Shown piece after piece: positions 20,033 through 59,199 of a DNA stretch of 64,000 nucleotides; the stretch's first letter is position 1; the number at the start of each line of letters is the position of its first letter. The DNA comes from Pseudanabaenaceae cyanobacterium (lineage in GTDB: Bacteria > Cyanobacteriota > Cyanobacteriia > Pseudanabaenales > Pseudanabaenaceae). Under the pieces are notes generated by a model. It was given only the letters and a program-made list of their open reading frames with translations, had not been told where the DNA came from and searched no databases. A program made the position numbers and the translations under genes. The stretch spans positions 80,755 through 144,754 of the forward strand of contig JBKBMU010000005.1 of assembly GCA_046295715.1 (NCBI GenBank). The letters run 5' to 3'.

Positions 20033-20093
20033 GTAAAAACCCCACCTCAGCGATCGCAGGGGCTGAAAGCCGCTCTGCAAGACTTATACAAAT

Positions 20094-21209
20094 CTATACA
20101 GCCAAGTCAAATAGACTCATACTGGCTTCCTGCTTCATCGAAGTCTCAAAAGCTACGCTCTCAAGGGGTATTACTTCTCCACAAGCTTCAATTCCCCCAG
20201 AGCTTGGGGTATTTTTGTAATTCAATAGATTTAGACTCCCATTCAAGTCTCTATTTATGGAAATGCCACAATGAGAACAGTTGTAAACTCGTTCTTTTAG
20301 CGGCATCTTTTGCCGATGCCCGCAGTTAGAGCATATTTGGCTGGAGGGGTAAAACCTGTCCACAACAGTTAATTTACTCCCATACCAGGCGCATGCCGGC
20401 GAAATTCAAAGAAACCACAATCGGCTATGGCATTTGCCAACCGGTGGTTCTTAAGCATACCCGATAATTCAGGTCTTCAATGATCACCTCGCCGTGGTTC
20501 TTAGCTAAATAAGTGGTGATATCCATCCTCATATCGGATACTCTCTTGTAGGCTCTGGCTAACCTGACTCTAGCTTTCTTTCTGTTGTTGGATTTAATTT
20601 GCTTTTTACTTAGCCTCCTTTGTAATCGTGATAGTTTCTTCTTGGCTTTCCTATAGGGTTTAGGATTAGGAAAGACTTTACCATTAGAGCAAGTTACTAA
20701 GACGTTTATACCTATATCTACGCCTATTTTATCTGCCTGATTGACAGTGGGTTTATGTTCTATTTCGTACTTAAAGCTGATGTACCACTTATCAGCTCTT
20801 TTACTGATAGTTACATTCTTTGGCGAAACTGAGGGTAAAAGTTCATCACAGGTTAGCCACCCAAATATCGGGACTCTAATTTTGTTTCCTGATATTTTAA
20901 TAACACCCTCCAAGTAAAAACTATCCCTTTTGCCTTTCTTTTGTATGTTGGTTTCTTGCAGTGTTTGTGTTTCCGCCAATTCTTGAAAACTCGTTCTAAA
21001 TTTCTTAGAGCTTCTTGAGGAGCACATTTGCTAACCTCGTAGTACCACCTGTTCACAGGTTTAACCTCTGCGACCAGTTTCTTGTGCAAATCTATCCCAC
21101 TGGGGACTTTCTGTTTATTCTCTAGTGCCGCCAAACAAACATCCAAACCCCAGTTATAGGCATGTCTCGCAACTCCGGCATGTTTCGCCGCAAAAGCCTG
21201 AGACTAGTC
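20094..21209 (-). pseudogene. tnpB: tnpB (IS200/IS605-IS607 accessory OrfB, RNA-guided-nuclease family), multiple frameshifts
   Basis: One TnpB reading is spread over three frames. The pieces are FAAKHAGVARHAYNWGL...QEALRNLERVFKNW (track 20853..21146), KKGKRDSFYLEG...IGVDIGINVLVT...EVIIEDLN (20425..21027) and the zinc-ribbon end FYPSSQICSNCGHRQKMPLKERVYNCSHCGISINRDLNGSLNL (20094..20363). The N-terminal ~20 aa are lost. Confidence 0.85.
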
Positions 21210-21430
21210 TTAAAGCTGACGAGTGACATTTCTCAACTCCCGCACCAATTGCTTGTTTTTCTCACTTCTGGAACCGTAAAGTCGGGCGGAAAATACGGTT
21301 ATTATCTCTAATACATCCTGTGCTAAATCCTCCTCAAAGGAACTGTCCTCGGTTCTATTTATAATGGCAACTTCTGTGCCAAATATCTCGCATAGGGAGA
21401 AAATTAGCTCGCTGCCAAAACGCAATAACC
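21210..21430 (-). pseudogene. tnpA: IS607-family tnpA (serine recombinase), C-terminal fragment
   Basis: LLRFGSELIFSLCEIFGTEVAIINRTEDSSFEEDLAQDVLEIITVFSARLYGSRSEKNKQLVRELRNV is the conserved C-terminal third of MerR-HTH/resolvase-type IS607 transposases. Sequence upstream of 21430 is unrelated. Confidence 0.85.
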
Positions 21431-21476
21431 CTTGACGCTGGGAGTATAATGCTCTGGGATTTTAGCAGATGGCAAC

Positions 21477-22796
21477 ATGAAAATCAGTGTGTTTCTGGGG
21501 AGTGCAATCGCCATCGCCATGGCGAATCCTGCATGGGCAAGGCCGATCTATGTGCATCCGCAAACGGGGAATGACCAGACGGGGGATGGTTCCCCTGCCC
21601 AACCATTTCGTACCATCAGCCGTGCCCTCCAAGCCAGCACAGGCGAAACAGTCATTCAACTGGCAGATGGGGTTTACAGTGAAGAACAGTTTCCCTTGGT
21701 GCTATCTCGCCAGACCATTGTCCAAGGCAATATCACCAACCAAGGCGCAAGTGTGGTGATCAAAGGAGGGGGCAATTTTCGTTCCCTGTTTTTGGGACAG
21801 CAAAACACAGCGATCGTCCTCCAAGATCAGGCGCAACTGCGGGGGGTTACAGTTACCAATCCTCAACCTAGAGGCTTTGGCGTGTGGATCGAGCGGGGCA
21901 GTCCCACCCTCAGCTACAGCACCCTCACCGCCAACAGCCAAGACGGGATCAGCATCACGGGCAGAGCAGGGGGCACTATCACTCACAATCTGGTGCGTGC
22001 CAATTCTGCCAACGGGATCACGATCGATGGTTTAGCTACCCCCCAAGTTAAACATAATCTCATCACTCAGAATGTTTTTGGGATCAATATCCGCCAAAAT
22101 AGCGCACCCCAACTATTCTCTAACCAAATCACCAATCACCAAGACGGGGTCATGATTCAGGGGCAGTCCCGTCCTCGCCTGCGCCAAAATACCATCACCC
22201 ACAATCAGGGCACAGGGGTCATGATCCTAGGGCAAGCCATCCCCGACCTAGGCACAGCCGACAACTCTGGTAACAATGTTTTCAGCGACAATAAAACCGC
22301 CGACATTCGCAACCAGACCAGTCAAACCATAGTCGCCAGTGGCAATCAATTTAGCACACCCAAGCTCATCGGCAGTATTGAGCTGGCTGGTACAGCAATC
22401 GCCCCTCTGCCCAGCCCCCCCGCCCATGGGAATAATTCCATAGTGGTCTCCCTCACAGGGCAACCGCCCAAACTGCCTACTGACATTTCCCCTCATCTCC
22501 CCCCCATCACCACCACTCCCCCCAAAGGCGATCCCGTCAATCAGCCGATCGTGATCCGCCCCCCCCGTCCGATCGCGGTAATTACCCAACCCCCCCGTTG
22601 GCGAGTAGTGGTAACCCTTGTTACCCCTGAAGTGCTCCAGCAGGTACGCACCCTATTTCCTGAAGCTTTTGCCTCCAACCGCGCAGGCAGAAGCGTAATC
22701 CAGATCGGTGCCTACAGTAACCAAAACATTGCCCTTGAACGACTACAGCAATTAACCCAAATGGGCTTACCCGCTGAAATGGAAACTATTCAATAG
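21477..22796 (+). CDS. secreted parallel beta-helix (DUF1565-like) protein with Pro-rich linker and C-terminal SPOR-like domain
   Basis: 439 aa with a signal peptide (MKISVFLGSAIAIAMANPAWA). The N-domain is paralogous to ORF 287..1882 (QPFRTISRALQASTGETVIQLADGVYSEE vs QPLRTITAAVQRAQAGTIIQLVQGTYSQE). The C-terminus RWRVVVTLV...IQIGAYSNQNIALERLQQLTQMGLPAEM has a SPOR-like pattern. Confidence 0.7.
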   Translation: MKISVFLGSAIAIAMANPAWARPIYVHPQTGNDQTGDGSPAQPFRTISRALQASTGETVIQLADGVYSEEQFPLVLSRQTIVQGNITNQGASVVIKGGGNFRSLFLGQQNTAIVLQDQAQLRGVTVTNPQPRGFGVWIERGSPTLSYSTLTANSQDGISITGRAGGTITHNLVRANSANGITIDGLATPQVKHNLITQNVFGINIRQNSAPQLFSNQITNHQDGVMIQGQSRPRLRQNTITHNQGTGVMILGQAIPDLGTADNSGNNVFSDNKTADIRNQTSQTIVASGNQFSTPKLIGSIELAGTAIAPLPSPPAHGNNSIVVSLTGQPPKLPTDISPHLPPITTTPPKGDPVNQPIVIRPPRPIAVITQPPRWRVVVTLVTPEVLQQVRTLFPEAFASNRAGRSVIQIGAYSNQNIALERLQQLTQMGLPAEMETIQ

Positions 22797-22987
22797 CAGA
22801 AGTGTTGAATGTCAGGAAAAAGGTAGAAAAAAGGAGCCAGAAATGATATTTTAGCTCTAAGAAAAACAAAAAACTAACCCTATAGCAACTTATCAAGCCC
22901 TTGCTAATGATTATCGTGTTTTGGATTCTCAACTGTTTGTCCTCATCTGGATACATTTCATTTTAGATGCCAGAATTTCGACCATAA

Positions 22988-23160
22988 GGGGCTTATTCAT
23001 CTGGTTTTTAAGGTTGATATATCTACTTTTTCTAAAGCATGTAAACATCTTAGTGCTGAACCGTTTCAACGGATTTTAAGAGAGTTACAAGAGCGACTTA
23101 AAAACCAAGACCAAGCAGAATTCAAACATTTATTTCCTCTGGATTCTACTGAACTGATGG
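22988..23160 (+). pseudogene. DDE (IS4/IS5-type) transposase N-terminal fragment
   Basis: Own translation: GLIHLVFKVDISTFSKACKHLSAEPFQRILRELQERLKNQDQAEFKHLFPLDST. It ends at the first catalytic D(ST) and then diverges. It has no start codon and an in-frame stop immediately upstream. Confidence 0.4.
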
Positions 23161-23432
23161 AGAAATTACGATATTTACAGATAGAAATAGGCAGACATTG
23201 TACTTTAATGCAAATCTTAGGGGTTGAGCCTGTGGTAGGGTAAATCTAACCCCTAATGTTAAGTTTTGTTACAGAGGTGCAACATTTTTGCAGAGATAGA
23301 GGTACTTTGGGGGCAGATCAACATGGAATCCTAGATCAAAATTACCAGAAAAGAGATAACTGAGCTAAGTCTTTATTCCCCAGTGCCTTACCGTAGTAAT
23401 ATAGGGTTGGGTGTTTACGCATTAGTTTTTCA

Positions 23433-23873
23433 GTGGAACTATCGCTCAAAAGTGAGTATGCTCTCCTTGCCTTGATTGAGTTAGCCAACAATTATGATCG
23501 GGATCACCCCCTGCAAATTAAGCAGATTGCTACCCTGCAAAATATACCCGATCGCTATTTAGAGCAATTACTAGCATCCCTCAAACGGCAGGGCTTAGTA
23601 AGGAGCCAGCGGGGAGCGAAGGGGGGCTATATTTTGGCGCGAGAGCCTTGGCAGATCAGCATATTAGAGATTATCCGCTCTGTAGAAGGAAGCAATCCAT
23701 TTCTGCCTCGCCAACCTGAAGGTGGAGTAGTTTCCCCTGCGCTAGCAGCACTATTAGAAGTGTGGTATTCTGCCCAGAGCGCCGCTGAGGCTATTCTGCA
23801 AGAATATACTCTCAAAGATTTATGTGAACTAGCAAAACAGAAATCCCAAGTTGGTGTGATGTACTATATTTGA
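23433..23873 (+). CDS. Rrf2-family transcriptional regulator
   Basis: 146 aa with a GTG start. LSLKSEYALLALIELA...IKQIATLQNIPDRYLEQLLASLKRQGLVRSQRGAKGGYILAR is the Rrf2 winged-helix signature. Confidence 0.85.
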   Translation: MELSLKSEYALLALIELANNYDRDHPLQIKQIATLQNIPDRYLEQLLASLKRQGLVRSQRGAKGGYILAREPWQISILEIIRSVEGSNPFLPRQPEGGVVSPALAALLEVWYSAQSAAEAILQEYTLKDLCELAKQKSQVGVMYYI

Positions 23874-23955
23874 GGGTCTGAACTCTAGTAATCTAATCAT
23901 TCTAGGCTGGAACCTCAACTGCTAACTAATCAATTTAGAACGCTCCTATGCAACC

Positions 23956-24552
23956 ATGAATCAGAACCGCATTAGTAAAATCAATCGTCGTACGGGCGAA
24001 ACAGATGTGGAAATTTGGCTCAACCTTGATGGTAGTGGCAAGGGGAGTATCCATACGGGAATTCCCTTTTTGGATCATATGCTGCAACAACTGGCAACCC
24101 ACGGCCTGTTTGATCTGGAAATCAAAGCTGTAGGGGATTTGCATATTGACGATCACCATACCAACGAAGATGTGGGGATCGCTCTTGGTCAGGCATTTGC
24201 CCAAGCTCTAGGGGATCGCAAGGGTATCTATCGCTTTGGGCATTTTTTTGTGCCCCTAGATGAATCTTTGGTGCAGGTGGTATTGGATTTTTCGGGTCGC
24301 CCCTATCTAGCCTACGGCTTGGAAATCCCGACCCAACGCATCGGCACTTATGACACCCAGTTAGTAAGAGAATTCTATCAAGGGTTTGTCAATCACGCCC
24401 AGATTACCTTGCATATTCGCCAACTGGCAGGTATTAACTCCCATCACATTGTAGAAGCGAGTTTCAAGGCATTTGCCCGTGCCCTGCGCATGGCAGTAGA
24501 ACTCGATCCTAGGCGATCGCACCTGATTCCAAGTTCCAAAGGTGTGTTATGA
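23956..24552 (+). CDS. hisB: imidazoleglycerol-phosphate dehydratase
   Basis: 198 aa carrying [17 protein letters not shown]...[11 protein letters not shown]...HGLFDL...[19 protein letters not shown] and the second HHIVEA.FKA.ARAL motif. Confidence 0.93.
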
Positions 24553-24565
24553 TATTTGATGCCTT

Positions 24566-24636
24566 GCGGGTATAGTTTAGTGGTAAAACGAAAGCTTCCC
24601 AAGCTTTAGTTGCGGGTTCGATTCCCGCTACCCGCT
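24566..24636 (+). tRNA. tRNA-Gly (anticodon CCC)
   Basis: Folded by hand. Acceptor GCGGGTA/TACCCGC, D stem GTTT/AAAC, anticodon stem AAAGC/GCTTT with loop TTCCCAA, T stem GCGGG/CCCGC with loop TTCGATT, discriminator T. No CCA is encoded. Confidence 0.9.
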
Positions 24637-24658
24637 TTGGTTAGGGTCGAGAAAGAGA

Positions 24659-25147
24659 GTGGCAGGAGCAATTATACTAATCGGAATTCCAGGGAGTGGC
24701 AAATCCACTCTTGCTCAGTCCATGTTGCGCACCCATCCCAATCTCTATGCCTATATTTCCCCTGACCAGATCAGAGGTAGGCTCTACGGCGATGCCTCAA
24801 TTCAGGGAGAATGGCTACAAATTTGGGCAGAAGTCAAACAGCAGGTGATGACTGCTGCTGAAGCAGGGAAGAATATCATTTACGATGCCACTAACTACAA
24901 GAGTAAATATCGTAGAGAGGTGATTGAACTCCTCAAGAGTTATCATTTTCAACCGATCACGGGTGTTTGTCTGCAAGTACCGCTGTGGATTTGTTTGAGT
25001 AGAAATCAATCCCGTTCTCGCCAAGTGCCTGAAGATGTGATTATTGAGATGCATCGCTGTCTAGTATTGAATCCGCCTAGTTTGCGGGAAGGGTTCGATC
25101 GTCTCCTTGTTCAAGAAGACCGCCCTGAAAATGAATGGATCGATTAG
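24659..25147 (+). CDS. P-loop kinase-like ATP-binding protein (AAA_33 / polynucleotide-kinase-like)
   Basis: 162 aa with a GTG start and Walker A ILIGIPGSGKSTLA. Its size and the pattern ..DATNYK...R..... resemble small stand-alone P-loop kinases. Confidence 0.6.
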   Translation: MAGAIILIGIPGSGKSTLAQSMLRTHPNLYAYISPDQIRGRLYGDASIQGEWLQIWAEVKQQVMTAAEAGKNIIYDATNYKSKYRREVIELLKSYHFQPITGVCLQVPLWICLSRNQSRSRQVPEDVIIEMHRCLVLNPPSLREGFDRLLVQEDRPENEWID

Positions 25148-25161
25148 CACATGCCAAGTTC

Positions 25162-25551
25162 TCAATTCTCCCAACTATCTAAATCCATTGCTGGGGATCC
25201 CCCTCGTTCCAATTCCACTAGCAATCTACTCAATTGTCGCCACACAAAATAACTAATGCCAAGGGTGATTGGGATCGCTACTGCCAGCGCCAAAGATGGC
25301 GGAAACCCAAAAATCCCTAGCCCACAGGCTAGAAATATGCCCACATTCACCACAATGCCCAAATAAGGAACATATATTGATGTTCCTCGTAGTTCCAGAA
25401 TCACAGCTGTACTTTTGCTTTCGATCCAACGGTCAATCAATTGGCGTAGGCTCATCTCAAAAGCCTTGCCACAGCTTAAACCCAAGAGCAGAGAAGCAAT
25501 GAAGAGAAAATAGGGGGGATCGCTGGGAAAGTAGTAGCTAATCACGGTCAA
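25162..25551 (-). CDS. small membrane protein (3 TM), hypothetical
   Basis: 129-aa hydrophobic ORF whose start overlaps the recJ stop by 4 nt (ATGA-type coupling). Confidence 0.5.
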   Translation of the reverse strand: MTVISYYFPSDPPYFLFIASLLLGLSCGKAFEMSLRQLIDRWIESKSTAVILELRGTSIYVPYLGIVVNVGIFLACGLGIFGFPPSLALAVAIPITLGISYFVWRQLSRLLVELERGGSPAMDLDSWEN

Positions 25552-27608
25552 TTTCCTTGATGCTCTGGACTGCTCAATTGTACTAGAGAATGTCCACTCC
25601 TAAAACAAAATTCAGCTAGAGTAGCAATAAATTCTTTAATTGCAAAAGAATTCAAAGGAGCTTGACGCAAACTATCATTCTGTGTAAAGCTAAGCTGACC
25701 ATCACAGATACAAGGTTGTAAATAAGTAGCTTGTAAAGCTTTTATTCCTTTTTCTAGCAAAATGTCAGTTAAATACAATTTATCCTTAAGTACAGTTAGT
25801 GGAATCTGTTGTTGAGTACGGGCTAGATACTTAGCGATCCCCACTAATTCTTTCCAGATATGAATTGGATCCCTTGGAACCCTCTGGACTAATGGGGGCA
25901 AATTCTCGACTGGTTTAGGTGCAGTTGGTAAAACAACTGGGGCAACTAAGCGCCAATCAATAAGCAGCCCTTGATACTTGTATTTATTATCCTTGAATTT
26001 ATGTACAAATTCTACTAACACATCACAGCGATCCCTAGGCAGTTCACTGGGTTTGTAGTCCCAACAAATGCATTTAGTTTTACCTGTTGCATCCTGTAGA
26101 AAGTATTCAGGAAATCTACTAGAATCGACTGTAGAGAGATAGGCGTTTCTAATTAAAATTACAGGATTAGGATTGCCCATACCAAAAGGTTGCAAACACT
26201 TTAACTGCTTCGTGAGGTCTTCATTGAATTCCCCAATGTTCAGTTCTAAATCAATCTGGATTTGACGGACAAAAGAGTAATTAGGATAGTGGTGATGGAA
26301 CCTTTGATTGATCGCATGGATAAAAACCTCTAAATTTTCTTGCTTGAGAGATAAGCCACAGGCAAAAGGATGTCCACCCATACCGATCAATAAGTGTTCC
26401 TGCCCTTTGATCAACTGATATAAATCAATATCACCATAGGATCGGGCACTGGCTCTAATCACTTCTCCATCGGTAGTACCCACAATTACAGGGCGACAAT
26501 ATATATTGCTGATCCGATTAGCCGCTAAACCTAGAATTCCACCTGTCCACTCTGGATCGACTGTAACAATAATCCCTGTAGTTGATAAATCTAGCTGGCT
26601 AATTTTTTTCAAGACAGCATCGGTCAATTTGTCTTGTAAGTTTTTGCGTTTCTGATTGGCAGTCTCCATTAGATCAACTAAGGTCTGACAGTAGGTGGGA
26701 TCATTGCTAGTAAAGAGTTCCACACATCGATTTACTTGACCCCAAATCCGACTAACCGCATTCAAGCGGGGGGCGATACCAAAACTAATATCGGTAGGAT
26801 TATCGCCTGCTAGGTTACATTTATCTAGTAATAATTTTAAGCCTGTGCGCTGGCGTTGCTTGAGCACTTCTAACCCTTTCTTGGCGAGATAGCGCACATC
26901 CCCTGTCAATTCTACAAGGTCAGCAATCAAACCAATGGCTACTAAATCTAATAGTTTTTCTAAAGCTACCTGAGGATCACTTACTTGGGTTGTATATAGC
27001 CCCTCTAATAGTTTATATGCGGTCGCTACGCCTGAAAGATGATAGAGGGGATGATGATTAGATAAATACCGTGGGTTAATAATTGCCGTCACAGGAGGGC
27101 GTTCTGCAGGTAGAGTGTGATGGTCAGTAATAATCACATCTATTCCTAAATGCTTTAGATATTCTAGCTCGGCATAATTGGAACTGCCTGTATCGCAAGT
27201 AATAACTAGATCGCAGTTGTTTTTAATAGTCTCAATTCCCTTCCGGGATAAGCCGTGACCCTCTTGCAGACGATCGGGAATGTAGTATTTTAGATTGGGC
27301 AATAGAGGTTTCAATCCCTCTAAGAGAACTGCTGTAGCTGTAATTCCATCCGTATCAAAATCTCCCCAAATCCATACCCTCTCTTGCTTCTTGGCGGCTC
27401 GTTGAATTCTCTCAATCCCCCGCTCCATCTCCGCACCAAAAGCACTTGCTGGCGTAGGCTGGTAGTGGCTGGGATCAAGGAATGACATAACTTCCAGGGG
27501 ATCGGTCATACCTCTGCGCCACAGAATCTCTGCCCCGTATCTACCTGCGAGGTCAATCAACCACTGGGGGAGTGGGGTAATCTTCGTAAATATCCATTCA
27601 CTAGACAT
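25548..27608 (-). CDS. recJ: single-stranded-DNA-specific exonuclease RecJ
   Basis: 686 aa with DHH-family motifs (IWGDFDTDGITA, ITCDTGSS, VIITDHH) and DHHA1 (GGHPFACG). Confidence 0.9.
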   Translation of the reverse strand: MSSEWIFTKITPLPQWLIDLAGRYGAEILWRRGMTDPLEVMSFLDPSHYQPTPASAFGAEMERGIERIQRAAKKQERVWIWGDFDTDGITATAVLLEGLKPLLPNLKYYIPDRLQEGHGLSRKGIETIKNNCDLVITCDTGSSNYAELEYLKHLGIDVIITDHHTLPAERPPVTAIINPRYLSNHHPLYHLSGVATAYKLLEGLYTTQVSDPQVALEKLLDLVAIGLIADLVELTGDVRYLAKKGLEVLKQRQRTGLKLLLDKCNLAGDNPTDISFGIAPRLNAVSRIWGQVNRCVELFTSNDPTYCQTLVDLMETANQKRKNLQDKLTDAVLKKISQLDLSTTGIIVTVDPEWTGGILGLAANRISNIYCRPVIVGTTDGEVIRASARSYGDIDLYQLIKGQEHLLIGMGGHPFACGLSLKQENLEVFIHAINQRFHHHYPNYSFVRQIQIDLELNIGEFNEDLTKQLKCLQPFGMGNPNPVILIRNAYLSTVDSSRFPEYFLQDATGKTKCICWDYKPSELPRDRCDVLVEFVHKFKDNKYKYQGLLIDWRLVAPVVLPTAPKPVENLPPLVQRVPRDPIHIWKELVGIAKYLARTQQQIPLTVLKDKLYLTDILLEKGIKALQATYLQPCICDGQLSFTQNDSLRQAPLNSFAIKEFIATLAEFCFRSGHSLVQLSSPEHQGN

Positions 27609-28257
27609 CGTCTAAACGCTCGATCGCTGATTTTAGTTTCTGCCATAGTAATTCTAAACTCACCGGATCATTCAAGCTATGATCAGATTCCACTAAATGT
27701 AACTCTACTTGAGGATATTGTTTCTGAAACTCTATGCTCACTTCTGCGGGTACAACCTCATCTTGCTTACCGTGCAGGATCGCAATGGACAGAGTGCGCG
27801 CCAATTGCCAATGCCGATATTGCTGGGCATCTAAATAGAACTCATAATTGAGAGCAATGTTCTTCTGGAAGCCATAGTGGAAGAATTCCCTAGTACCTTG
27901 CTTTTCCCACTCAGCCAACGCTTCTGAGCCTATCCATTGTCCTATAGCCGCAGGAAAATTCAGCGCAGGTGCAAGCAGAATCATCTCTTTAATCTGAACA
28001 TTGCGGATCGCCCACTGCACCGCAATAAAACCCCCTAGACTAGAACCTACCACCAGTAAGGCTTCATTTGAGAAGGAATGCTGTAAATAATTCAGTATCT
28101 TAGTAATGGTCATAGTCTGAAAATTTCCTAGAGTCAAATCAGGAATCAAGAGTTCTCTGCTAATTTCCTGACACTTCTGTTTTAAGAATTGAGCTTTGCC
28201 TGATTGTGGGCTAGAACCAAAACCATGCAGATAAATTATGGTCATACTTTCCCCCAT
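27601..28257 (-). CDS. YqiA-like alpha/beta-hydrolase esterase
   Basis: 218 aa with IIYLHGFGSSPQSGKAQFLK at the N-terminus, the nucleophile elbow VGSSLGG and a C-terminal DH. It overlaps both neighbouring genes. Confidence 0.7.
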   Translation of the reverse strand: MGESMTIIYLHGFGSSPQSGKAQFLKQKCQEISRELLIPDLTLGNFQTMTITKILNYLQHSFSNEALLVVGSSLGGFIAVQWAIRNVQIKEMILLAPALNFPAAIGQWIGSEALAEWEKQGTREFFHYGFQKNIALNYEFYLDAQQYRHWQLARTLSIAILHGKQDEVVPAEVSIEFQKQYPQVELHLVESDHSLNDPVSLELLWQKLKSAIERLDDV

Positions 28258-29678: not shown

Positions 29679-29777
29679 AAGTATTTTGCAAACTGAGCTT
29701 CTATTATATCTCTTTTGCTGTACTAATTGAAAAACTTGGCTTAAACTTATTCTCTAATTTCAATGGTATTTTAATCT

Positions 29778-30167
29778 ATGTCCACTTCTGAATTACCAAA
29801 ATCTATACTAGTAATTGATGATGAGCCTGATATTTGTGAAGTGATTCAAGTGGCTCTAGGGGAATTCGCAGGCTGGCAGGTAACTACAGCTGGTTCAGGC
29901 AAAGAAGGTCTAGAAATTCTCGATCGCCTCAGTTTTGATTTGATTCTCTTGGATATATCTATGCCAGAAATGGATGGCATTAGTGTCTTTGAGCAAATGC
30001 GATCCCATCCTACAGCCAAAGATATACCAGTAATTTTATTAACTGCCAAAGTATTAGCTTCAGATCAAGAACGGTTTGCTAAAATAGGCGTAGTGGGCGT
30101 AATTGGCAAGCCATTTAACCCCATAGATTTAAGTACTAAGATAGCTAAACTCATGGAATGGAATTAA
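29778..30167 (+). CDS. single-domain response regulator (receiver only)
   Basis: 129 aa with ILVIDDEPDI...LLDISMPEMDG...LTAK...GKPF. Its stop overlaps the start of the next gene (ATGGAATGGAATTAA). Confidence 0.85.
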   Translation: MSTSELPKSILVIDDEPDICEVIQVALGEFAGWQVTTAGSGKEGLEILDRLSFDLILLDISMPEMDGISVFEQMRSHPTAKDIPVILLTAKVLASDQERFAKIGVVGVIGKPFNPIDLSTKIAKLMEWN

Positions 30168-33735: not shown

Positions 33736-33736
33736 T

Positions 33737-44317: not shown

Positions 44318-44321
44318 GGCC

Positions 44322-46632: not shown

Positions 46633-46659
46633 AACTTACTACCTAAATAGATTATTTTT

Positions 46660-47655: not shown

Positions 47656-47656
47656 G

Positions 47657-47872: not shown

Positions 47873-47959
47873 AAGTTAACTTAAGTCTGGTTGCTCCTAT
47901 AACTGCTAGGTATAAATACTAGTTCAGTATTCACAGCTACTGTTTTTTGTTAAGGAAAA

Positions 47960-48397: not shown

Positions 48398-48420
48398 ACA
48401 ACAGACCTAACCCTAGACAA

Positions 48421-48552
48421 TTATCTAAAACCGATTGCCGCTTGCCAGACAAACGCTAGGAGGAGGAAAAAGACTGGAATCACAGGTAGGACATCTACCA
48501 AGGGTTCTAGGAAACGGTAGGCTTCAGGAAGAGTAGCAATTGAGAACATCAT
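48421..48552 (-). CDS. psbK: photosystem II reaction centre protein K
   Basis: Own translation (43 aa, below the track cutoff): [43 protein letters not shown]. This is almost the PsbK consensus, and GAGG lies 7 nt upstream. Confidence 0.92.
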
Positions 48553-48641
48553 ATTAACCTCTGCTAGTAAATTTTTCTGTTATTGCTTGATAGTAGCATA
48601 TCTATACAGCCCATGGCAGGAAAAGGTGCTATGATATTTTT

Positions 48642-49139: not shown

Positions 49140-49142
49140 AAA

Positions 49143-51140: not shown

Positions 51141-51266
51141 AGGCTCAATTTAAGATTTGTTAAGTTCTGATATTACACCATATCTGAGTCTTTATGCTGA
51201 CTGCAATCCTCAAAGCCGTAGAATTAGGACTTTTTCTATCTGTGCTCAACGCCTTACGGCTAAGCT

Positions 51267-51608
51267 CTAGGGGCTTTCTAAACAGATAGAAAAACAATCA
51301 GCTACATCATTTGGTTCAGCATTTAGTCCAGGATAACGACTTGCTACTCCAAATCCAATTAGTTTTTCTAACTTGACCTCATCTGCATTCCATTCAGGTA
51401 CTGCTAGTTCATCGTGAATTCTCAAGAGATTATGAGTGTATTCAGTTGCTATCTGTCGCTGGACTAACAAAGCCTTCATCTTTTTTTCGGCGCACTGTTG
51501 AGCGTGAAAACAACAGATGTTGGGTAAATTAGGATGATTTCTGAGGAGCTACAGCACCAGCCAGTCTTCTTCAGCCTTTTTAACCCACTCTTGCCAAACC
51601 TCGATCAT
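51267..51608 (-). pseudogene. HEPN-domain protein (MNT/HEPN toxin-antitoxin type) with an in-frame stop
   Basis: Own translation from ATG 51608: MIEVWQEWVKKAEEDWLVL*LLRNHPNLPNICCFHAQQCAEKKMKALLVQ...ASRYPG. The TAG at 51549-51551 interrupts codon 20. The track ORF 51267..51479 is the in-frame remainder. Confidence 0.65.
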
Positions 51609-51735
51609 ATAAAACTCTCCCGTAATCAGCCATTTTAACCAGTGGATTGTATTGCTGGTAACGCCAAGCCACTTCCTCTGGGAACTTAACAATCAAATCC
51701 ACAGGAAACCGGCATTCCAAATTACTCCAGCCATA
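51580..51735 (-). pseudogene. nucleotidyltransferase (MNT) C-terminal fragment
   Basis: Own translation ...PVDLIVKFPEEVAWRYQQYNPLVKMADYGRVLYDRGLARVG*. The catalytic N-terminal GS..D.D part is missing. It overlaps the start of the HEPN gene, as in intact pairs. Confidence 0.55.
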
Positions 51736-51870
51736 TCAATACCTCTACCTTGGTAATCTAATAATCAGAATGTGTCTCACCATAAGCATAGATCTCTGGC
51801 TAAAATTTCTCCGCTATTTGCCGGGCTAGTGCTTCTATTTGGCGATCGCTGATTAGATGATTATTCATAA

Positions 51871-52437
51871 TTAAAACTCTGGCTCAGTAAAGAATTCACT
51901 CAAAGACAGAGAAAACCCTGGAATTACATCCTCTCCATCTAAAAAATCTCCTACTCTCAAGAACTTGTCTGGTTCTGGCTGATGATAAACTAATACATAT
52001 CGTTCATCGGGATGGATCAACCACACCAAGCGTGATCCACTGGCAAAATACTCTTCTATTTTTTGATGAATTTCTTCCACTGTGTTGCCATCTGATAATA
52101 CTTCAATTGCCAGATCAGGTGCCCCTCTAAAAAAGCCCTTAGTGAGCCTACCACTGCCCATCAATCTTGTTTTAGAAATAAATGAGCCATCAGGTGATCT
52201 TCTATTCCCAGATTCCATAATAAAAGCTGTACTGGAATCACAGACAATTCCCAAGTTGTGCTCCCGCACATAAATTGTAATCAAAGCCGCCAACAGGTTG
52301 GCATAGTAGCCATGTCTAAATCCCGCATTACCCATCTTTATTAGCTCTCCGTTAACAATTTCGTAGCGATCGCCCGTATCAGGCAATGCCATAAATTCTT
52401 TATCTGTCCAAGTTTTAGTGATAGTTTCCATATTCAT
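51871..52437 (-). CDS. Uma2-family (DUF820) endonuclease
   Basis: 188 aa. EFMALPDTGDRYEIVNGELI....HGYYANLLAAL...SPDGSFI...GAPDLAIEVLS.GNT......K...Y...G....WLIHPDERYV.VY has the PD-(D/E)XK arrangement typical of Uma2. Confidence 0.8.
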   Translation of the reverse strand: MNMETITKTWTDKEFMALPDTGDRYEIVNGELIKMGNAGFRHGYYANLLAALITIYVREHNLGIVCDSSTAFIMESGNRRSPDGSFISKTRLMGSGRLTKGFFRGAPDLAIEVLSDGNTVEEIHQKIEEYFASGSRLVWLIHPDERYVLVYHQPEPDKFLRVGDFLDGEDVIPGFSLSLSEFFTEPEF

Positions 52438-52561
52438 TAGTAGATGATAGTTACCTTCAACTCTACTTTTTTATTGTATTTATTGTACAAATCTTCTAGC
52501 CCTATGCTCAACTCCACGAACTCTAACTTGACAATATCTAAGATTCGATTGTATTCCATCA

Positions 52562-52990
52562 TTAGCCATAGTGAATCACTCTTATCTTATCCTGCTCAAT
52601 CAACAGATACTCGACAAAAGTAGGAATCGTGGGATAAGCCTCAAACTTCTCTCCACAATCATACCTCTAGTAGAATCTGATAACACTTCAGCCATCAATA
52701 AAGTATTAATTACCGTATCTTTTCTACCTTCTTGGCAACCATCACATCAGGATACGTATAAATCTGTCGATCGGGAATCCACAGGGGTTGATCGGTTGCA
52801 AACGCACGATAGGGCTTGCGCCGCAGGGCAAAATTAGGGTTGCTGCCAGATTTAGCACAATTAAATTGTGATTGGGTTTGCTTCCTGTTATTGATATATC
52901 ATGGCGCAAGTCAGACTTTACTTCCGCTTCCAAGTATTCTTGTGGGGAAATTTGTTTATTTACTCTCTCAACCATCTGTATCTGTACCAT
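52562..52990 (-). pseudogene. second Uma2-family gene, frameshifted and internally deleted
   Basis: The N-terminal part is track ORF 52742..52990 (SPQEYLEAEVKSDLRHD...NHNLIVLNLAATL). The C-terminal part is found in other frames: EVLSDSTRG and YDCGEKFEAYPTIPTFVEYLLIEQDKIRVIHYG*. Confidence 0.65.
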
Positions 52991-53636
52991 TGCTTATCTC
53001 CTTGTTGCTCTGGGTATTTCCACAAAACATAATCACTAAATTCTCCCAAAGAAAATCTCTGAAAAGTTCCTTGACTGGTATGCCTATCAATCCAAATCGG
53101 CAGGCTAATTAAACCGCGTTTATCCTTAACTAGCCAACGAATCATGCCATCAGTTTCTCGATACTTGTGAATGCCATTGACCATTGCCCAAGACTCTCCC
53201 AAGCTTAACCCGCCAAAGCGAATAATGTCTTTAGGAGATGACAGAGGGATCGCTACTCGTTCTGATAATTTGTATTGGTTAGTTCATTACCGGAGTCAAT
53301 TTTGAGAGCAATACGCACATCAGTCAGTACTTCATGAAAGTTCGGTTTGGAAAATTGACTAGCAGGATAGACTCCTGCAGTGAGCATTCATATCCTCTTC
53401 CCCCACCAGCGATAGGAGAAATCCATAGATAGTAGATAGGTTTCCTTGAAATCCCTTGCAAAGCTACGAGGGGAAAGGTCTATCCAATTTTCTGCCACTA
53501 CGAAGAAATAGTCATTTCAGGTAAAAACAACATAATTTGGGACTGTGAAAGCCCCCACTTGAGTTTTCTGCAAAAAAGGCGGGGGGTAAGGGATAAAATT
53601 ACTATATCTTGACTTCAGAAATCATATTTAAGAGAA

Positions 53637-54482
53637 CTATTGCCCAGCCAAAATGATTTTATCTTGACCGAGATAGGTAAGCGGATCGACTGGAGTTTTA
53701 CCATCAGGTTTGACCTCAAAATGTAGATGGGGAGCGGAGCTTCTGCCTGTACTACCCACTTCAGCGATCGCATCGCCTCTATTTACTAGCTGTCCCTTCT
53801 GAACTAGAATGCGGTGAGCATGGGCATAGAGAGTAACTGTACCGTCTGGATGACGGATTTCTAAATAGTGACCGTAACCATTCCCTTCATAGTCCACGGT
53901 AATCACAATACCTTCAGCCACTGCCCAAATGGGTGTGCCCATCGGGGCAGAAATATCAATTCCCTTGTGAAAACGCCGATCGCCTGTAATGGGATGGGTA
54001 CGGTAGCCAAATCCATCCGTAATTTGTCCCGCCACAGGTTGGAGAAAACCGCTAGGGGCTTGAGTAGGAGCGGGTGGCAGCAGTATCACCCACTTGCCTG
54101 AATTATCCGTAGTGAGGCGCAGAGCCGAAGTGTCTATTTGTTCATAAGCAGGGAATTCCACTACCAGACGAGTAGTTTGGGCATCACTTTTGCCAATGCG
54201 CAGGGTACGATCGCCAACCCTACGCCTCAGAGTAGCCCCGTTGTATTCCACATTTGGCAAATCAATCACTATGCGCAAAGGATTGAATAGTAGCATTCCT
54301 TTGGGTTCGATATCCGTAGGTACTGAGAATTCCAAACGACTCTGGGACACATCGTAAATGAAGTTTTGTAAGGGATTTGCCCACCCTGGGGGAGCAAGCA
54401 GAAGAATACCACTCAATACTACTAAAGTGCGCCACATATAGACTCTAGCTATACCCATGGGGGCAGATTTTAGCAGAAACAA
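53637..54482 (-). CDS. M23-family metallopeptidase with N-terminal AMIN-like domain
   Basis: 281 aa with a signal peptide. The M23 motifs are HKGIDISAPMGTPIWAVAEG and GSTGRSSAPHLHFEV. The N-terminal RLEFSV...PLRIVIDLPNV...TTRLVVEF has an AMIN-like pattern. Confidence 0.85.
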   Translation of the reverse strand: MFLLKSAPMGIARVYMWRTLVVLSGILLLAPPGWANPLQNFIYDVSQSRLEFSVPTDIEPKGMLLFNPLRIVIDLPNVEYNGATLRRRVGDRTLRIGKSDAQTTRLVVEFPAYEQIDTSALRLTTDNSGKWVILLPPAPTQAPSGFLQPVAGQITDGFGYRTHPITGDRRFHKGIDISAPMGTPIWAVAEGIVITVDYEGNGYGHYLEIRHPDGTVTLYAHAHRILVQKGQLVNRGDAIAEVGSTGRSSAPHLHFEVKPDGKTPVDPLTYLGQDKIILAGQ

Positions 54483-54740
54483 AACTGAGAGGATGTCATT
54501 TTTGAACGGTTATTGCCTCTTGTCCTGCGTAGGGAGTCGCCAAGGTTATGCTAGGGGTCTGTTGCATAAGAGACTAATGTGCTTAGGACTTACGGTTCAT
54601 GGGAGCCCTCAAACTCCCTCACTCCAGAATTTATTCTAAAGACCAGCGTAACTCTTGGTACTAAATTTGAGTTTCTCATATTTGCTCAATAAATGATTCG
54701 GTTACACTAGAGAAGCACTGCTAGTTATAGTGAACAATTT

Positions 54741-55478
54741 ATGTTGCTGTATCTTTCTACTTGGCAAGAGGTAGAGGCATATTTACAAAAATCCCAAGGC
54801 ATTATTATTCCCATCGGCTCCACTGAACAGCACGGTCCAACTGGTTTAATCGGTACAGATTTCATCTGTGCGGAGACGATCGCCAAGGGAGTAGGAGAAC
54901 GGACAGGTGCAATGGTCAGTTCTACGCTCACTATAGGTATGGCGGAGCATCATTTGGGCTTCCCCGGCACTATTAGTTTGCAACCTAAAACAATGATGTT
55001 ACTCATTTATGATGTGGTGCGATCGCTGGCTAAGCACGGGTTTCGGCGGTTATTTTTTATCAATGGACATGGGGGCAATATTGCGATCGTCCGCGCTACT
55101 TTTAGCGAAATTTATAATGATTTTCCTGAAGTACGCTGTCGTTTGGCTAACTGGTGGATGGGCAAAAATACTAGTAAATTAACCAGAGAATTGTACGGGG
55201 ATCAAGAGGGAGCCCACGCTACCCCCAGTGAAGTGGCGGTAACTATGTATGCCTATCCCCATGCCATCAAAAATGTAGAATTAACTACGCCAGCCCCACC
55301 GGATACGGGTATTTTTAGTCCTGAAGATTTTCGCAGGCGCTATCCTGATGGACGAATGGGGTCTAATCCTAAATTAGCAACTATTGAGCATGGTCAAAAA
55401 TTATATGAAACAGCTGTAGTGGAATTAGCTGACTACTATCTAAATTTCCTGAAAGATGATTCAGGAGTAGAAATTTAG
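54741..55478 (+). CDS. creatininase-family amidohydrolase
   Basis: 245 aa with IIIPIGSTEQHGPTGLIGTD and FINGHGGN motifs. Confidence 0.8.
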   Translation: MLLYLSTWQEVEAYLQKSQGIIIPIGSTEQHGPTGLIGTDFICAETIAKGVGERTGAMVSSTLTIGMAEHHLGFPGTISLQPKTMMLLIYDVVRSLAKHGFRRLFFINGHGGNIAIVRATFSEIYNDFPEVRCRLANWWMGKNTSKLTRELYGDQEGAHATPSEVAVTMYAYPHAIKNVELTTPAPPDTGIFSPEDFRRRYPDGRMGSNPKLATIEHGQKLYETAVVELADYYLNFLKDDSGVEI

Positions 55479-55639
55479 CTTTGCATCGGTCATGAGATGA
55501 GATTAGATGTTCTGCCACAAGCGCCTTTTCAAATTTGTGCAAGGTTGAGTTTAGGCTGTCGTGATGCTCCTAAACCCCTGACTCTAGCGGAGGCTGTCGC
55601 CCCCTGCCATCCCTTGAACCTTTCCTCAGTACAATTGAC

Positions 55640-55978
55640 CTATTCCACTAGGTATTGCATCTCGGCATTGGGGGCTAGAGTGATGCGGTCGCCTGCAACT
55701 AGATCGTAAGAACTGATTTTTTCCTTATTGTTGATGATAACTCCATTCACACTGGCTTTGCCTGTCATATCGCCGTCGAGGATGCGGTAGATGAACCTGC
55801 CGTCTTCACCCCTTACCCGCAACATTACCGCATGGTGGCGGGACACAAATCGTGAAAAAATCTGGATGTCATTGGATTCATCTCGCCCGATCGTGTACTT
55901 GAGACTGTCCAACACAATCCTTCTGACGCCCTTGGTGTCGTTGATCACCAAAATATGAGTAGCTGTTTTTTCGCTCAT
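55640..55978 (-). CDS. single-domain FHA protein
   Basis: 112 aa carrying YTIGRDESNDIQIFSRFVSRHHAVM...DGDMTGKASVNGVIINNK. Confidence 0.8.
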   Translation of the reverse strand: MSEKTATHILVINDTKGVRRIVLDSLKYTIGRDESNDIQIFSRFVSRHHAVMLRVRGEDGRFIYRILDGDMTGKASVNGVIINNKEKISSYDLVAGDRITLAPNAEMQYLVE

Positions 55979-56058
55979 TGGGTTATCATACAGCTTTAGC
56001 TCTGGATTTATGCCAACTATTTTTATATCTCATTCTCAGGCTAGTTTAGCGATTTGGT

Positions 56059-57166
56059 ATGGATATTACGGAAATTAAACGACATTTGCAATTGCTCCAA
56101 CAGCGACTGGGCAAAGCCCAGGACTATCTTTGACCTGCCACGGCTGTCAGCACAGATTCATGACCTAGAGCAGAGGGCGGCTCAGCCCGATTTGTGGTCA
56201 GACCCCCAGCAGGCACAGAAAATTTTGCGGGAACTGGATGCCAGCAAAGCCCAGCTACACAACTGGAAAGCTTGGCAAGACACCATTGGCAACCTAGAAG
56301 CCATGGTGGAGTTGCTGACCCTAGAAACCGACCCCGCCCTTGTGAGCGAAGCAGAACAACATATCCAGTCTCTGACCCAATCCCTCGATCGCTGGGAATT
56401 GGAACAGTTACTAGGGGGCGAGTATGACCAGCGGGATGCGATCCTGACCATCAATGCGGGGGCAGGGGGCACAGATGCCCAAGATTGGGCAGAAATGCTG
56501 TTGAGAATGTACACCCGCTTTTGCGAGGCAAGGGGCTACCAAGTGGAACTGTCTGATCTGTCGGAAGGAGAGGAGGCGGGGATCAAGTCCGCTACCTTGG
56601 TGGTGCGGGGGCGCTATGCCTATGGCTACTTGATCGCTGAAAAAGGCACCCATCGCCTTGTCCGCATCTCCCCCTTCAATGCCAACGACAAACGCCAGAC
56701 CAGTTTTGCAGGGGTGGAAGTGATGCCCCTAATTGAGGATGAAATTGATCTGGAAATCGATCCCAAAGACTTGGAAATCTCCACCAGTCGCTCCGGCGGC
56801 AAGGGCGGGCAAAATGTAAACAAAGTAGAAACTGCGGTGCGCATCACCCACCTGCCCACAGGCATTTCCGTCAGGTGTTCCCAAGAGCGATCCCAGTTGC
56901 AGAACAAAGAAAAAGCTATGCAAATTCTCAAAGCCAAGCTACTAGTAATTGCCAAAGAACAGCGCGCCCAGAAAATTTCAGACATTCGCGGCGACATGGT
57001 AGAAGCGGCATGGGGCAACCAAATCAGGAACTATGTATTTCATCCGTACCAACTGGTCAAAGACCTGCGCACTGGTGTAGAAACCACCAATATCCAAGAG
57101 GTGATGAATGGCAAACTCGATCCTTTTATTGAGGCTTATTTACGGCAACAAACTGCACCTAACTAG
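56059..57166 (+). CDS. prfB: peptide chain release factor 2 (requires programmed +1 frameshift at 56128-56133)
   Basis: Frame 0 reads ATG 56059 [24 protein letters not shown] then TGA at 56131. The +1 frame from 56132 continues [22 protein letters not shown]... and includes SPF and [16 protein letters not shown] (GGQ motif). The site is the classic CTT TGA C. Confidence 0.93.
56120..56134 (+). promoter_or_regulatory. RF2 autoregulatory +1 frameshift site (SD-like AGGA, slippery CTT, in-frame TGA C)
   Basis: The sequence is AGGActatCTTTGAC. The internal Shine-Dalgarno-like AGGA lies 4 nt before CUU, and UGA is followed by C. Confidence 0.85.
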
Positions 57167-57199
57167 CGTCAGAATGCCAACCGATACGACGCTGATGCT

Positions 57200-57619
57200 A
57201 TGGTGAACTTTTCGGCTGGTTTGCTCATGTTTTTAATATCTGTACTGGGGGAGGGGGTAGTTGCCCAAGCCCCTGTGCTTACTTTTACGGAAAATCAGAT
57301 CGACCGCTATGTAGCCGCAGTGCGGTCGATCGAGCGCAAGCGGGAAGAAGTACTCAGGCGCGCCAAAAACAGTGAAAACTGGGCGATCGCTGTGCAGTTA
57401 GCGGAAACTCACAATCGTGATATTTGCCGTGTGCCCCCTGAACAGCAACCTGCCAACATCCGAGTCCTGTGTCGGGAATTACTGGAATTTTCCGAGCGAG
57501 AAATCCGCAGGCATGGTTTGACCAACCGGGAGTTTAACCAGATCACCCAGGGCCTGCAACAGGACAAACAGCTACAGGCAAGGATTCAGCTCAGACTACT
57601 TAAACTCAGAAACCCCTAG
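57200..57619 (+). CDS. hypothetical secreted protein (possibly DUF4168-like)
   Basis: 139 aa with a signal-like N-terminus and a helical charged body. The family assignment is tentative. Confidence 0.45.
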   Translation: MVNFSAGLLMFLISVLGEGVVAQAPVLTFTENQIDRYVAAVRSIERKREEVLRRAKNSENWAIAVQLAETHNRDICRVPPEQQPANIRVLCRELLEFSEREIRRHGLTNREFNQITQGLQQDKQLQARIQLRLLKLRNP

Positions 57620-58038
57620 CGACGCACCGTACCTGTAAAGCCTACCGCCTTGAATTTTTCTAGCTTGAGGGGCGGGGGCTGATCCCTAGGTACGCTGAGC
57701 ATAATTTGGAATTCACTTTCCCCAGGGGGAATGACATCCACCGAGCCCAGTCTGCCCCGCTCTGGCAGTACATCATTGCCATTGGCATCATAGACCCGCC
57801 CAAATACATCAGCATTGTAAATGGTCTTGTTGGAAGGATTGACGGCTGTGCCTTTGATCATGTAGCAAGTAGCAGGCATTGTGCCGCCCCCCAAAACTAG
57901 GTTTTTGCCACCCTCCCCTTGACAGGGTTCATAGGTGAGATTCTTGATTTTGATTTTTACATCTGCTGAGGCAGGGTCAGCAGTGAATACCCCCCAGCAG
58001 AATAGCAACAGCAAAACTATGCCCCAAACTTTACCCAT
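57616..58038 (-). CDS. hypothetical secreted protein
   Basis: The track ORF reaches 58074, but ATG 58038 (MGKVWGIVLLLLFCWGVFTADPASA) gives a clean signal peptide preceded by AGGGG. It also removes the overlap with the upstream gene. Confidence 0.5.
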   Translation of the reverse strand: MGKVWGIVLLLLFCWGVFTADPASADVKIKIKNLTYEPCQGEGGKNLVLGGGTMPATCYMIKGTAVNPSNKTIYNADVFGRVYDANGNDVLPERGRLGSVDVIPPGESEFQIMLSVPRDQPPPLKLEKFKAVGFTGTVRR

Positions 58039-58048
58039 AGGTGTACCC

Positions 58049-58555
58049 CTAGCTGTTGAGATCGCCGCCGCCAATGCGCCCCCGCACTAGGTCATCAGGG
58101 GTAATGTCCGCCAGAAACTCCCTAAAGGCGCGCCGTTCTGCTTCATCTGCCTCTCTATCTACAGGGATCGATGCCTCTAGCACTACTTCCTCCATCACCC
58201 AAATCGGACAACGGGCACGCAGAGCCAGCGCGATCGCATCACTGGGGCGGGCATCGATTTCCCGCTTCGTTTCCCCATCTTGCAGCAGAATCACTGAATA
58301 AAAAGTGCCATTTTTGAGAGAGTGGATCACCACCTTGTCCACTGTTACCCCACAGGCATCCAGCATATTCAATAGTAGATCGTGGGTCATGGGGCGGGGC
58401 GTGGGTTTAGGGTCAAGGGCGCGGATGATCGCATGGGCTTCCACCTCACCAATCCAGATCGGTAAATTGCGTCGATCGGCTGTATCTCTTAGTAGCACGA
58501 TCGGGTTGCGACTCCCAGCGTCAATAGCGATCCCAACTACCTTCATCTCGATCAT
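58049..58555 (-). CDS. bifunctional nuclease (BFN/DUF151) family protein
   Basis: 168 aa carrying VVGIAIDAGSRNPIVLLRD....R.LPIWIG..EA.AI......PRPMTHDLL and DARPSDAIALALR. Confidence 0.8.
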   Translation of the reverse strand: MIEMKVVGIAIDAGSRNPIVLLRDTADRRNLPIWIGEVEAHAIIRALDPKPTPRPMTHDLLLNMLDACGVTVDKVVIHSLKNGTFYSVILLQDGETKREIDARPSDAIALALRARCPIWVMEEVVLEASIPVDREADEAERRAFREFLADITPDDLVRGRIGGGDLNS

Positions 58556-58745
58556 AGTTTGCTCCCTCCAACCGCTTAGCTCCGTAGAGAACTAATATAC
58601 ATCATAACCCTTAGGGGCTTAACCTCTTTTATATTCCTTAAAATCCGCTCGAGTACAGGGACAGGGCGCTTTCACAAGGTCAAGGACAATATAGGCAGAA
58701 ATGGGGGAAATAAATCTGGTTTTGGTAATACCCGCAGCTAATACA

Positions 58746-59199
58746 AACCGGTCTTTATGGGTAAGTACTAATCTTTCAACTCTATTGTCAGTAATTAAAT
58801 TGATGAGCCGCTTTAGCCCCCTTTTAGAGTAGTTCAGCCCACTGCCTAAGTCTTGAATGATTTCTACATCCATTTAAGGCACAAAGCAACTCAACAACTT
58901 CAACTTGCCTATGTAAGTCTTCCTTTTGGTTGTGGCTGGATACACGAGCATAACCTACGGTAAAGGATAATTCCGACTTTATGCCCATTAATTGAGCCAA
59001 ATCATAACAGCGATGACATTCGCGGTTCTTTCCAGTATTAATTTACCGGCAGCCTCCCACCGTCCCAGGGTTTGGGTGGAGACCCCTTTTAATTTTGCCG
59101 CTTGAGAAATAGATAGTTTACTCATAACAATTATTATATACCATAAAAGTATAAGTATGTATAGTTTTGGATAATTTAATAGATTACTGCTACAAACCC
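58746..59199 (-). mobile_element. tnpA: IS607-family element, proximal half (left terminus + tnpA 5' two-thirds, two frameshifts)
   Basis: Minus strand from ATG 59125: MSKLSISQAAKLKGVSTQTLGRWEAAGKL (MerR-type HTH). After a frameshift comes ..HRCYDLAQLMGIKSELSFTVGYARVSSHNQKEDLHRQVEVVELLCALNG (catalytic Ser region). After a second frameshift comes DVEIIQDLGSGLNYSKRGLKRLINLITDNRVERLVLTHKDR. Similarity ends at GGTT (58749-58746). The left terminus GGGTTTGTAGCAG is at 59199. Confidence 0.85.

Follow-up and report, generated by a model that had tools for sequence, protein, structure and literature searches.

How did the transposase gene of a single insertion sequence (IS) come to lie in two pieces on either side of a long run of chromosomal genes? 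The question is raised by a stretch of 64,000 nucleotides (hereafter the window) from a Pseudanabaenaceae cyanobacterium (assembly GCA_046295715.1, contig JBKBMU010000005.1, positions 80,755 to 144,754), in which two pieces of an IS607-family element, with the remains of its genes tnpA and tnpB, lie in the same orientation at the ends of a block of such genes. The two pieces are the halves of a single IS607-family element. What the locus preserves is, with high probability, one decayed element that was bisected exactly at a GG-containing tetranucleotide and now flanks 37.3 kb of core genes.

Two halves of one IS607-family element

The left end (LE) and the 5′ part of tnpA extend, on the minus strand, from 59199 to 58746 and end with ...AAAGACCGGTT, and the remaining tnpA sequence, the decayed tnpB and the right end (RE) extend from 21430 to about 20040, beginning with GGTTATTGCG. 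The 5′ part of tnpA can be read from the ATG at 59125 through ...CTTACCCATAAAGACCGGTT at 58746, beyond which the sequence (tgtattagctgc...) is unrelated and is located 190 nt upstream of the gene for a bifunctional nuclease (BFN). At 21430 of the same strand, ...cagcgtcaagGGTT is directly followed by ATTGCGTTTTGGCAGC and then, in frame, by LLRFGSELIF...RQL and a stop codon, down to 21210. The observed junction sequences are ...AAAGACCGGTTTGTATTAGC and ...GCGTCAAGGGTTATTGCG, and GGTT (plus-strand AACC at both 58746-58749 and 21427-21430) is the sole sequence duplicated at the two.

When the halves (454 and 1,391 bp) are joined through a single GGTT, the 29 nt across the join read CATAAAGACCGGTTATTGCGTTTTGGCAG and are identical, free of gaps, to an intact IS607-family copy in a Thermosynechococcus metagenome-assembled genome (MAG; locus L003). 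The joined element of 1,848 bp aligns with L003 over the full length (84% nucleotide identity) and likewise over the full length with the copy of Gloeocapsa PCC 73106 (L004). At the protein level, the repaired TnpA of 198 aa aligns unbroken, over the join between K124-D125-R126 and L127, to the solved catalytic domains of transposases from the IS607 family, and the best 120 TnpA homologues from a search of 5.8 billion proteins are, without exception (120/120), collinear across the join and span TnpA from end to end, nearly all being 200 aa long. The exact, gap-free join and the collinearity of the homologues therefore identify the pieces as halves of one element. A sequence-only reading of the window had already claimed that tnpA is cut exactly in two, with no base lost and only GGTT duplicated, and that both pieces belong to one IS607-family element; all its coordinates and sequences are reproduced here, the common origin is borne out by the alignments and the homologues, and two intact copies of the kind that it proposed to align across the break, L003 and L004, are contiguous there, with no indel. 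We are thus highly confident that there was one element and that it was cut once, by a conservative exchange.

A different origin of the two pieces would be a pair of IS copies flanking the block, each truncated at the same nucleotide, for instance by deletions from a hot pseudo-site. Truncation does occur at this locus, as attested by a third, truncated copy within the block (41632-41705), and the ends of contigs from the Logan collection (see below) hint at further copies in the sample. Nevertheless, in the absence of a hot spot, two independently truncated copies would end on complementary bases with a chance of only about 1/1848; among 76 metagenome loci there is no partial IS607 copy whose TnpA match is bounded at the break, judging by the reported residue ranges; and the 9-nucleotide match described below would be left without an explanation. 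We consider this origin hardly credible.

The truncated copy itself is a relic of 74 nt, oriented like the split element. It begins 1 nt past the stop codon of an ABC-transporter gene (41707-43479), reads GGGTTTGCA at 41705-41697 on the minus strand, and breaks off after ...CTCAAGCGG (GCGG, a GG); the remainder of this copy is absent from the window, which contains no IS607 sequence besides the split element and this relic. Small repeats elsewhere in the window form intergenic families of 25-45 nt with 75-93% identity: one at 2952-2996, 6356-6391, 38953-38988 and 43614-43658 (inverted), and the further pairs 3075-3103/39037-39065 and 6501-6526/41533-41558. One member of these intergenic repeats is about 75 nt away from the point, at 41632, where the relic is truncated.

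Table 1. Features of the split element, the block between its halves and the contigs that cover them (window coordinates).
Feature	Position	Strand	Remarks
LE; terminus GGGTTTGTAGCAG at 59199, subterminal repeats CTATACATACTTATAC at 59164-59149	59126..59199	-	similarity to L003, L004 and the 41705 relic begins exactly at GGG
tnpA 5′ part: MerR-type helix-turn-helix and first part of the resolvase-type catalytic domain, ending ...THKDR (AAAGACCGGTT)	58746..59125	-	
GGTT at the junction of the tnpA 5′ part with the z-end (block end adjoining the BFN gene)	58746..58749	-	crossed by Logan contig L001
Block of chromosomal genes, 37,315 bp	21431..58745		composition like that of the flanks
Relic of a second IS607 copy: LE (GGGTTTGCAGCAG...) and first bases of tnpA	41632..41705	-	about 86% identical, with internal deletions
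GGTT at the junction of the a-end (block end adjoining the DUF1565 gene) with the tnpA 3′ part	21427..21430	-	crossed by Logan contig L002
tnpA 3′ part (LLRFGSELIF...RQL and stop), in frame	21210..21430	-	no frameshift
tnpB pseudogene (OrfB_IS605, Cas12f-like)	20094..21229	-	at least 4 frame segments, several deletions
RE; subterminal repeats GTATAGATTTGTATAAG at 20099-20083, presumed terminus ...GAGGTGGGG at 20043-20040	20040..20099	-	
Logan contig L001	49564-58775		ends exactly 30 nt (k-1) into the IS, at the break
Logan contig L002	21412-22825		stops 19 nt inside the tnpA 3′ half
Logan contig L163	from 59149, left flank		stops 51 nt inside the LE

Anatomy and decay of the element

The assignment to the IS607 family rests on a TnpA sequence in which two frameshifts were repaired and the halves joined. 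In this sequence, Pfam detects a MerR domain (residues 5-41) and a Resolvase domain (residues 57-186), the matches in PDB are IS607-family catalytic domains (3lhk, 3lhf, 3ilx, 6dgc and 6dgb), and amino acid identity to P0001, the annotated IS607-family transposase of L003, is 88%. The left boundary, between ggct and GGGTTTG, is fixed by three other copies. The subterminal repeats of the LE are inverted copies of those of the RE, and the RE segment matches, in reverse complement, the LE region of L003 and L004; these TTATAC/GTATAA repeats presumably represent TnpA-binding sites. On the right, the presumed terminus lies 7 nt past the stop codon of a gene for a CheA-like hybrid kinase of 1,137 aa, and the boundary between GGTGGGG and ttttt is plausible. 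The flanks of the element contain no direct repeat besides the G-run. On the strand of the element, about 40 nt upstream of the LE, a terminator-like hairpin (CCCAGA-TTAAC-TCTGGG, followed by ATGTTTTTTG; 59240-59266, minus strand) was noticed by eye.

The ATG of tnpB at 21229 overlaps the tnpA stop codon at 21210. Four frame segments of tnpB align to the TnpB of L004, and the Pfam family OrfB_IS605 is matched. At the 3′ end of this pseudogene (20127-20185, minus strand) there is a sub-threshold match to the Rfam motif RAGATH-18 (29 bits, E = 0.008). This motif accompanies the orfB genes of IS605 and IS607 elements, and we take the match to be probably a remnant of the ω/right-end RNA of the element.

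Both genes are dead: deletions of 1 nt and 5 nt (two frameshifts) disrupt the 5′ part of tnpA, and tnpB has at least three frameshifts in addition to deletions. The decay of both halves had been correctly recognized in the sequence-only reading; its conclusion that the split is therefore old does not follow, because the decay may have preceded it. In the collection of 5.8 billion proteins, which holds other proteins of the same organism, there is no tnpA product with at least 90% identity (the best identity is 89%), although short fragments would go unlisted. Exact-pattern scans across the join found no match in metagenome or viral contigs, and the 76 metagenome loci contain only copies with about 68% DNA identity, which are too diverged for either the RE terminus or a target consensus to be pinned down.

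Assembly support

The window comes from a 201,503-bp contig of a MAG, so that the order or orientation of the pieces might reflect an assembly artefact or a mixture of strain variants. Three Logan contigs of run SRR31360861 match the window at 100% identity, and the junctions are crossed by L001 and L002 (Table 1), although these contigs may derive from the same reads as the MAG assembly. All three stop inside the IS, at 58775, 59149 and 21412, and leave 58776-59148 uncovered, which suggests repetition or variation of the IS 5′ body in the sample, possibly including an unsplit copy. Exact-product look-ups in Logan for the open reading frames (ORFs) internal to the IS and for the cheA-like gene gave no match. 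An artefact is nonetheless highly improbable, given that both junctions are identical in the separate assembly, that a shared 4-mer is unable to cause a mis-join, and that the halves are short, with no other copy in the window.

The probable exchange at GGTT and its reconstructed chromosomal partner site

Both junctions keep every base of the element, and the shared GGTT includes GG, the identical overlap dinucleotide in the two partners. Such conservative junctions with a shared GGTT imply either a reciprocal exchange or an insertion that duplicated 4 bp. Under the latter scenario, a cut-and-paste transposase working on cryptic ends, or a staggered double-strand cut that was filled in, would have placed the block in tnpA, and the arrangement of IS half, GGTT, insert, GGTT and IS half formally matches a target-site duplication. 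The block, however, lacks terminal inverted repeats (p = 0.35), neither IS copies nor transposase genes are found at or in it, and its content is that of housekeeping genes, all of which make the insertion improbable.

For a reciprocal exchange, the candidate enzyme is suggested by the element itself. In IS607 transposition, strand exchange occurs over a GG dinucleotide and insertion takes place at GG, with (G)GG preferred; no target is duplicated, the intermediate is circular, and there is almost no other target requirement (PMC6188088; PMC4058570). The favored scenario would start with an IS607-family element (LE, tnpA, tnpB/ω-RNA and RE) whose insertion took place a few bases downstream of the gene for the CheA-like hybrid kinase. 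Later, tnpA would have been cut once, between codons R126 and L127, through a conservative reciprocal exchange at GGTT between the tnpA-internal site GACCGGTTAT and a chromosomal site ...CAAGGGTTTGTA..., with no base gained or lost. The hypothetical parental junctions would be ...AAAGACCGGTTATTGCG and ...GCGTCAAGGGTTTGTATTAGC. The likeliest catalyst would be an IS607-type serine transposase, produced either by the same copy before its decay or by a sibling copy. We infer that the exchange was reciprocal, as well as its enzyme, route and timing; a cut at a pseudo-site by a serine transposase of the IS607 type is the likeliest single explanation, unproven, and its chance is at best about even.

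The evidence specific to this enzyme comes from the partner sites. The rejoined block ends would read ...GCGTCAAGGGTTTGTATTAGC... and contain the 9-mer GGGTTTGTA, which is the left terminus of the element (59199-59191, minus strand), on the side and in the orientation expected of a left end if the block were the "insert". Both the presence of this 9-mer and a second copy of the terminus at 41697-41705, noted earlier from the sequence, were confirmed. The partner sites deduced from the junctions, GACC-GGTT-ATTG in tnpA and CAAG-GGTT-TGTA in the chromosome, both contain a GG whose polarity matches that of the element's own terminal GG runs. Among the other GGTT sites in the window (n = 519), 2 (0.4%) continue for at least 5 nt in the left-end context and 3 (0.6%) in the right-end context; the analytic expectation is 0.0046, and p for the 9-mer is about 0.004-0.01, post hoc. 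The GG in both partner sites, the 9-mer, the relic that ends at a GG and the block devoid of mobile-element features plausibly support the action of the transposase.

Several observations weigh against it. About 17% of random 4-mers contain GG (an arithmetic estimate), which makes the GG weak evidence, and a 4-nt overlap is also typical of illegitimate recombination mediated by microhomology. The 9-mer was noticed post hoc; the subterminal repeats that would bind TnpA are absent from both partner sites; and the likeness of the block ends to the LE and RE stops at 9 nt, with local and banded alignments no better than controls. A 12-mer in recJ (CTGGGTTTGTAG, 26047-26058, plus strand) is identical to the LE junction, apparently by chance, and the argument from the 9-mer therefore deserves less weight; it is weaker evidence than the base-exact complementarity of the halves. 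The element's own tnpA is frameshifted and no close product was found, and the enzyme would therefore have acted before the decay or have come from another copy. Finally, two events are required, and the ancestral adjacency of the block ends is presumed. Thus, of the proposal in the sequence-only reading that TnpA made an exchange at a GGTT pseudo-site, the use of the documented crossover dinucleotide and the 9-mer stand, whereas the presumed binding repeats are missing and the 9-mer carries the reservation just stated. In its more specific form, namely that an IS607 serine transposase recombined a GG in its own gene with a chromosomal mimic of the left terminus and thereby relocated 37 kb of essential chromosome, the proposal appears doubtful.

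The same reciprocal break could have arisen without any transposase, through illegitimate recombination at the 4-nt microhomology, such as an inversion in the course of repair or replication, with a second inversion restoring the orientation. Only 4 nt are common to the two sites, neither site has recombinase-binding repeats, the tnpA of the element is dead, and the gene order is heavily scrambled compared to the nearest genomes, so that rearrangements are frequent. Break repair, however, rarely leaves both reciprocal junctions base-perfect, and this explanation accounts neither for the 9-nt match to the left terminus (with the p value given above) nor for the GG in the overlap; we regard it as rather unlikely.

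As a separate possibility, the block ends were considered as the decayed LE and RE of another IS607 copy, and this candidate was rejected because the alignments did not rise above those of shuffled sequences or random segments of the window.

Topology of the rearrangement

A single reciprocal exchange on one chromosome yields either an inversion, in which the halves would lie in opposite orientations, or two circles. The halves are in the same orientation and 37 kb apart, and therefore two events are needed. Under the transposase scenario, the second event would be the re-integration of an excised 37-kb circle or, alternatively, a second, overlapping inversion. Symbolic reasoning indicates that the two routes are equivalent with respect to the product and the four breakpoints, which are the tnpA site, the a/z site, a point within the block and a point past the right flank; a circle excised at the a/z site itself is the exception to this equality. 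The sequence-only reading had favored excision as a circle followed by re-integration, a choice that the product, being shared with the inversion route, does not establish. An integrated plasmid would require one event only, and no plasmid genes support it. A search of the window for repeats that could mark the second breakpoint retrieved only the relic and the small intergenic repeats. Taken as a whole, the combination of an exchange by an IS607-type transposase with a second event is a tentative explanation, to which we assign slightly less than an even chance.

The gene neighborhoods in related genomes, which the sequence-only reading had proposed to compare, are silent on the ancestral arrangement. 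Among 185,579 species-representative genomes, the nearest homologues of the BFN protein (75% identity) are found in Pseudanabaena and have no neighboring gene in common with the window, and the 80 genome loci around BFN homologues, mostly from Pseudanabaena and at most 75% identical, show no conserved neighbor on either side. The nearest homologue of the DUF1565 protein outside the same MAG is 60% identical; in two relatives with DUF1565 homologues of 53-55% identity, the gene lies between prfC and purB. Neither a BFN-DUF1565 nor a cheA-DUF1565 adjacency was seen in the genomes examined, all of which are too distant, so that synteny is uninformative rather than negative. The collections searched contain no close relative (75% and 60% protein identity at best).

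The block and its flanks

The genes of the block encode, among others, a DUF1565 β-helix protein, an Rrf2 regulator, HisB, tRNA-Gly(CCC), RecJ, GltX, a response regulator, pentapeptide and WD40 proteins, several ABC transporters, Ado, Aar, IlvC, AroQ, UvrB, Uma2, an M23 peptidase, a creatininase, PrfB and the BFN protein. Among the core genes that had been assigned to the block from its sequence, hisB, tRNA-Gly, recJ, gltX, ado, aar, ilvC, aroQ, uvrB and prfB were confirmed. Searches against Pfam, NCBIfam and PHROGs detected no transposase, integrase, replication, partition, recombinase or phage genes in the block; there are no terminal inverted repeats at its ends and no step in composition or GC skew at its borders. 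Two further candidate identities were discarded on these grounds, an integrated plasmid, phage or excisable element for want of supporting genes in the three database searches, and a transposon with inverted-repeat ends by the test of the block ends (p = 0.35). In the middle of the block (43661-46141, minus strand), three consecutive ORFs of 218, 237 and 369 aa matched nothing in any of these three databases.

In the left flank, between the LE and an HlyD-type gene, a frameshifted pseudogene of cobS (cobalamin-5-phosphate synthase) occupies approximately 59830-60500 on the plus strand, and the Pfam CobS family matches only one of its frame segments. The right flank contains a chemotaxis-type cluster in which the CheA-like gene has a diverged internal duplication (17078-17223 versus 17840-17985) and a diverged duplication is shared between the two genes for methyl-accepting chemotaxis protein (MCP)-like products (13268-13522 versus 16053-16307), both with identities in the 71-73% range.

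Comparison with known systems

The element resembles members of the IS607 family (IS607 of Helicobacter pylori, IS1535 of Mycobacterium tuberculosis, ISC1904/ISC1926, and the elements of the cyanobacterial transposases P0001 and P0002) in the fusion of an N-terminal MerR-type helix-turn-helix domain to a C-terminal serine-recombinase catalytic domain, the overlapping tnpB, the subterminal repeats and, given the RE boundary presumed here, probably also the G-runs at the boundaries and the lack of both terminal inverted repeats and target duplication. It differs from them in that tnpA and tnpB are pseudogenes and that 37 kb of chromosome divides the element within tnpA; a literature search found no earlier description of a bisected IS607-family element. 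Apart from those of IS607, no serine-recombinase transposases are known that show almost no target specificity, and we know of essentially no documentation of the effects of the IS607 enzymes on host chromosomes beyond simple insertion.

The recombination of serine recombinases at pseudo-sites, exemplified by the φC31 integrase and its pseudo-att sites, is similar in involving a conservative exchange at a short identical core, with one site natural-like and the other not. The φC31 cases, however, are experimental and the enzyme is known, whereas here the enzyme is deduced and the resemblance extends over only 9 nt. In the nifD, fdxN and hupL elements of heterocystous cyanobacteria (of which the fdxN element employs the serine recombinase XisF), a gene is likewise split by tens of kilobases with short direct repeats. 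Unlike in those elements, the interrupted gene here is that of a dead transposase, and the insert carries essential genes and no recombinase; excision of the block would therefore be lethal and purposeless. In bacterial inversions and translocations associated with ISs, a mobile element is located at the breakpoints, as in the present case, but these rearrangements normally proceed via homologous recombination between whole ISs or at their termini and leave the elements whole, whereas here the breakpoint is internal and the element is halved.

The locus fits best among the scars of IS-associated rearrangements, as an unusual variant. If no transposase was involved, it would simply be an unusually tidy scar of this kind. 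If one was, the locus would be the first natural hint that IS607 transposases catalyze large rearrangements at pseudo-sites, and it would imply that transposases of minimal specificity are able to cause large rearrangements of the chromosome that are scar-free and in which the element itself is destroyed, with a bearing on genome plasticity in IS-rich cyanobacteria and on proposed scar-free genome engineering.

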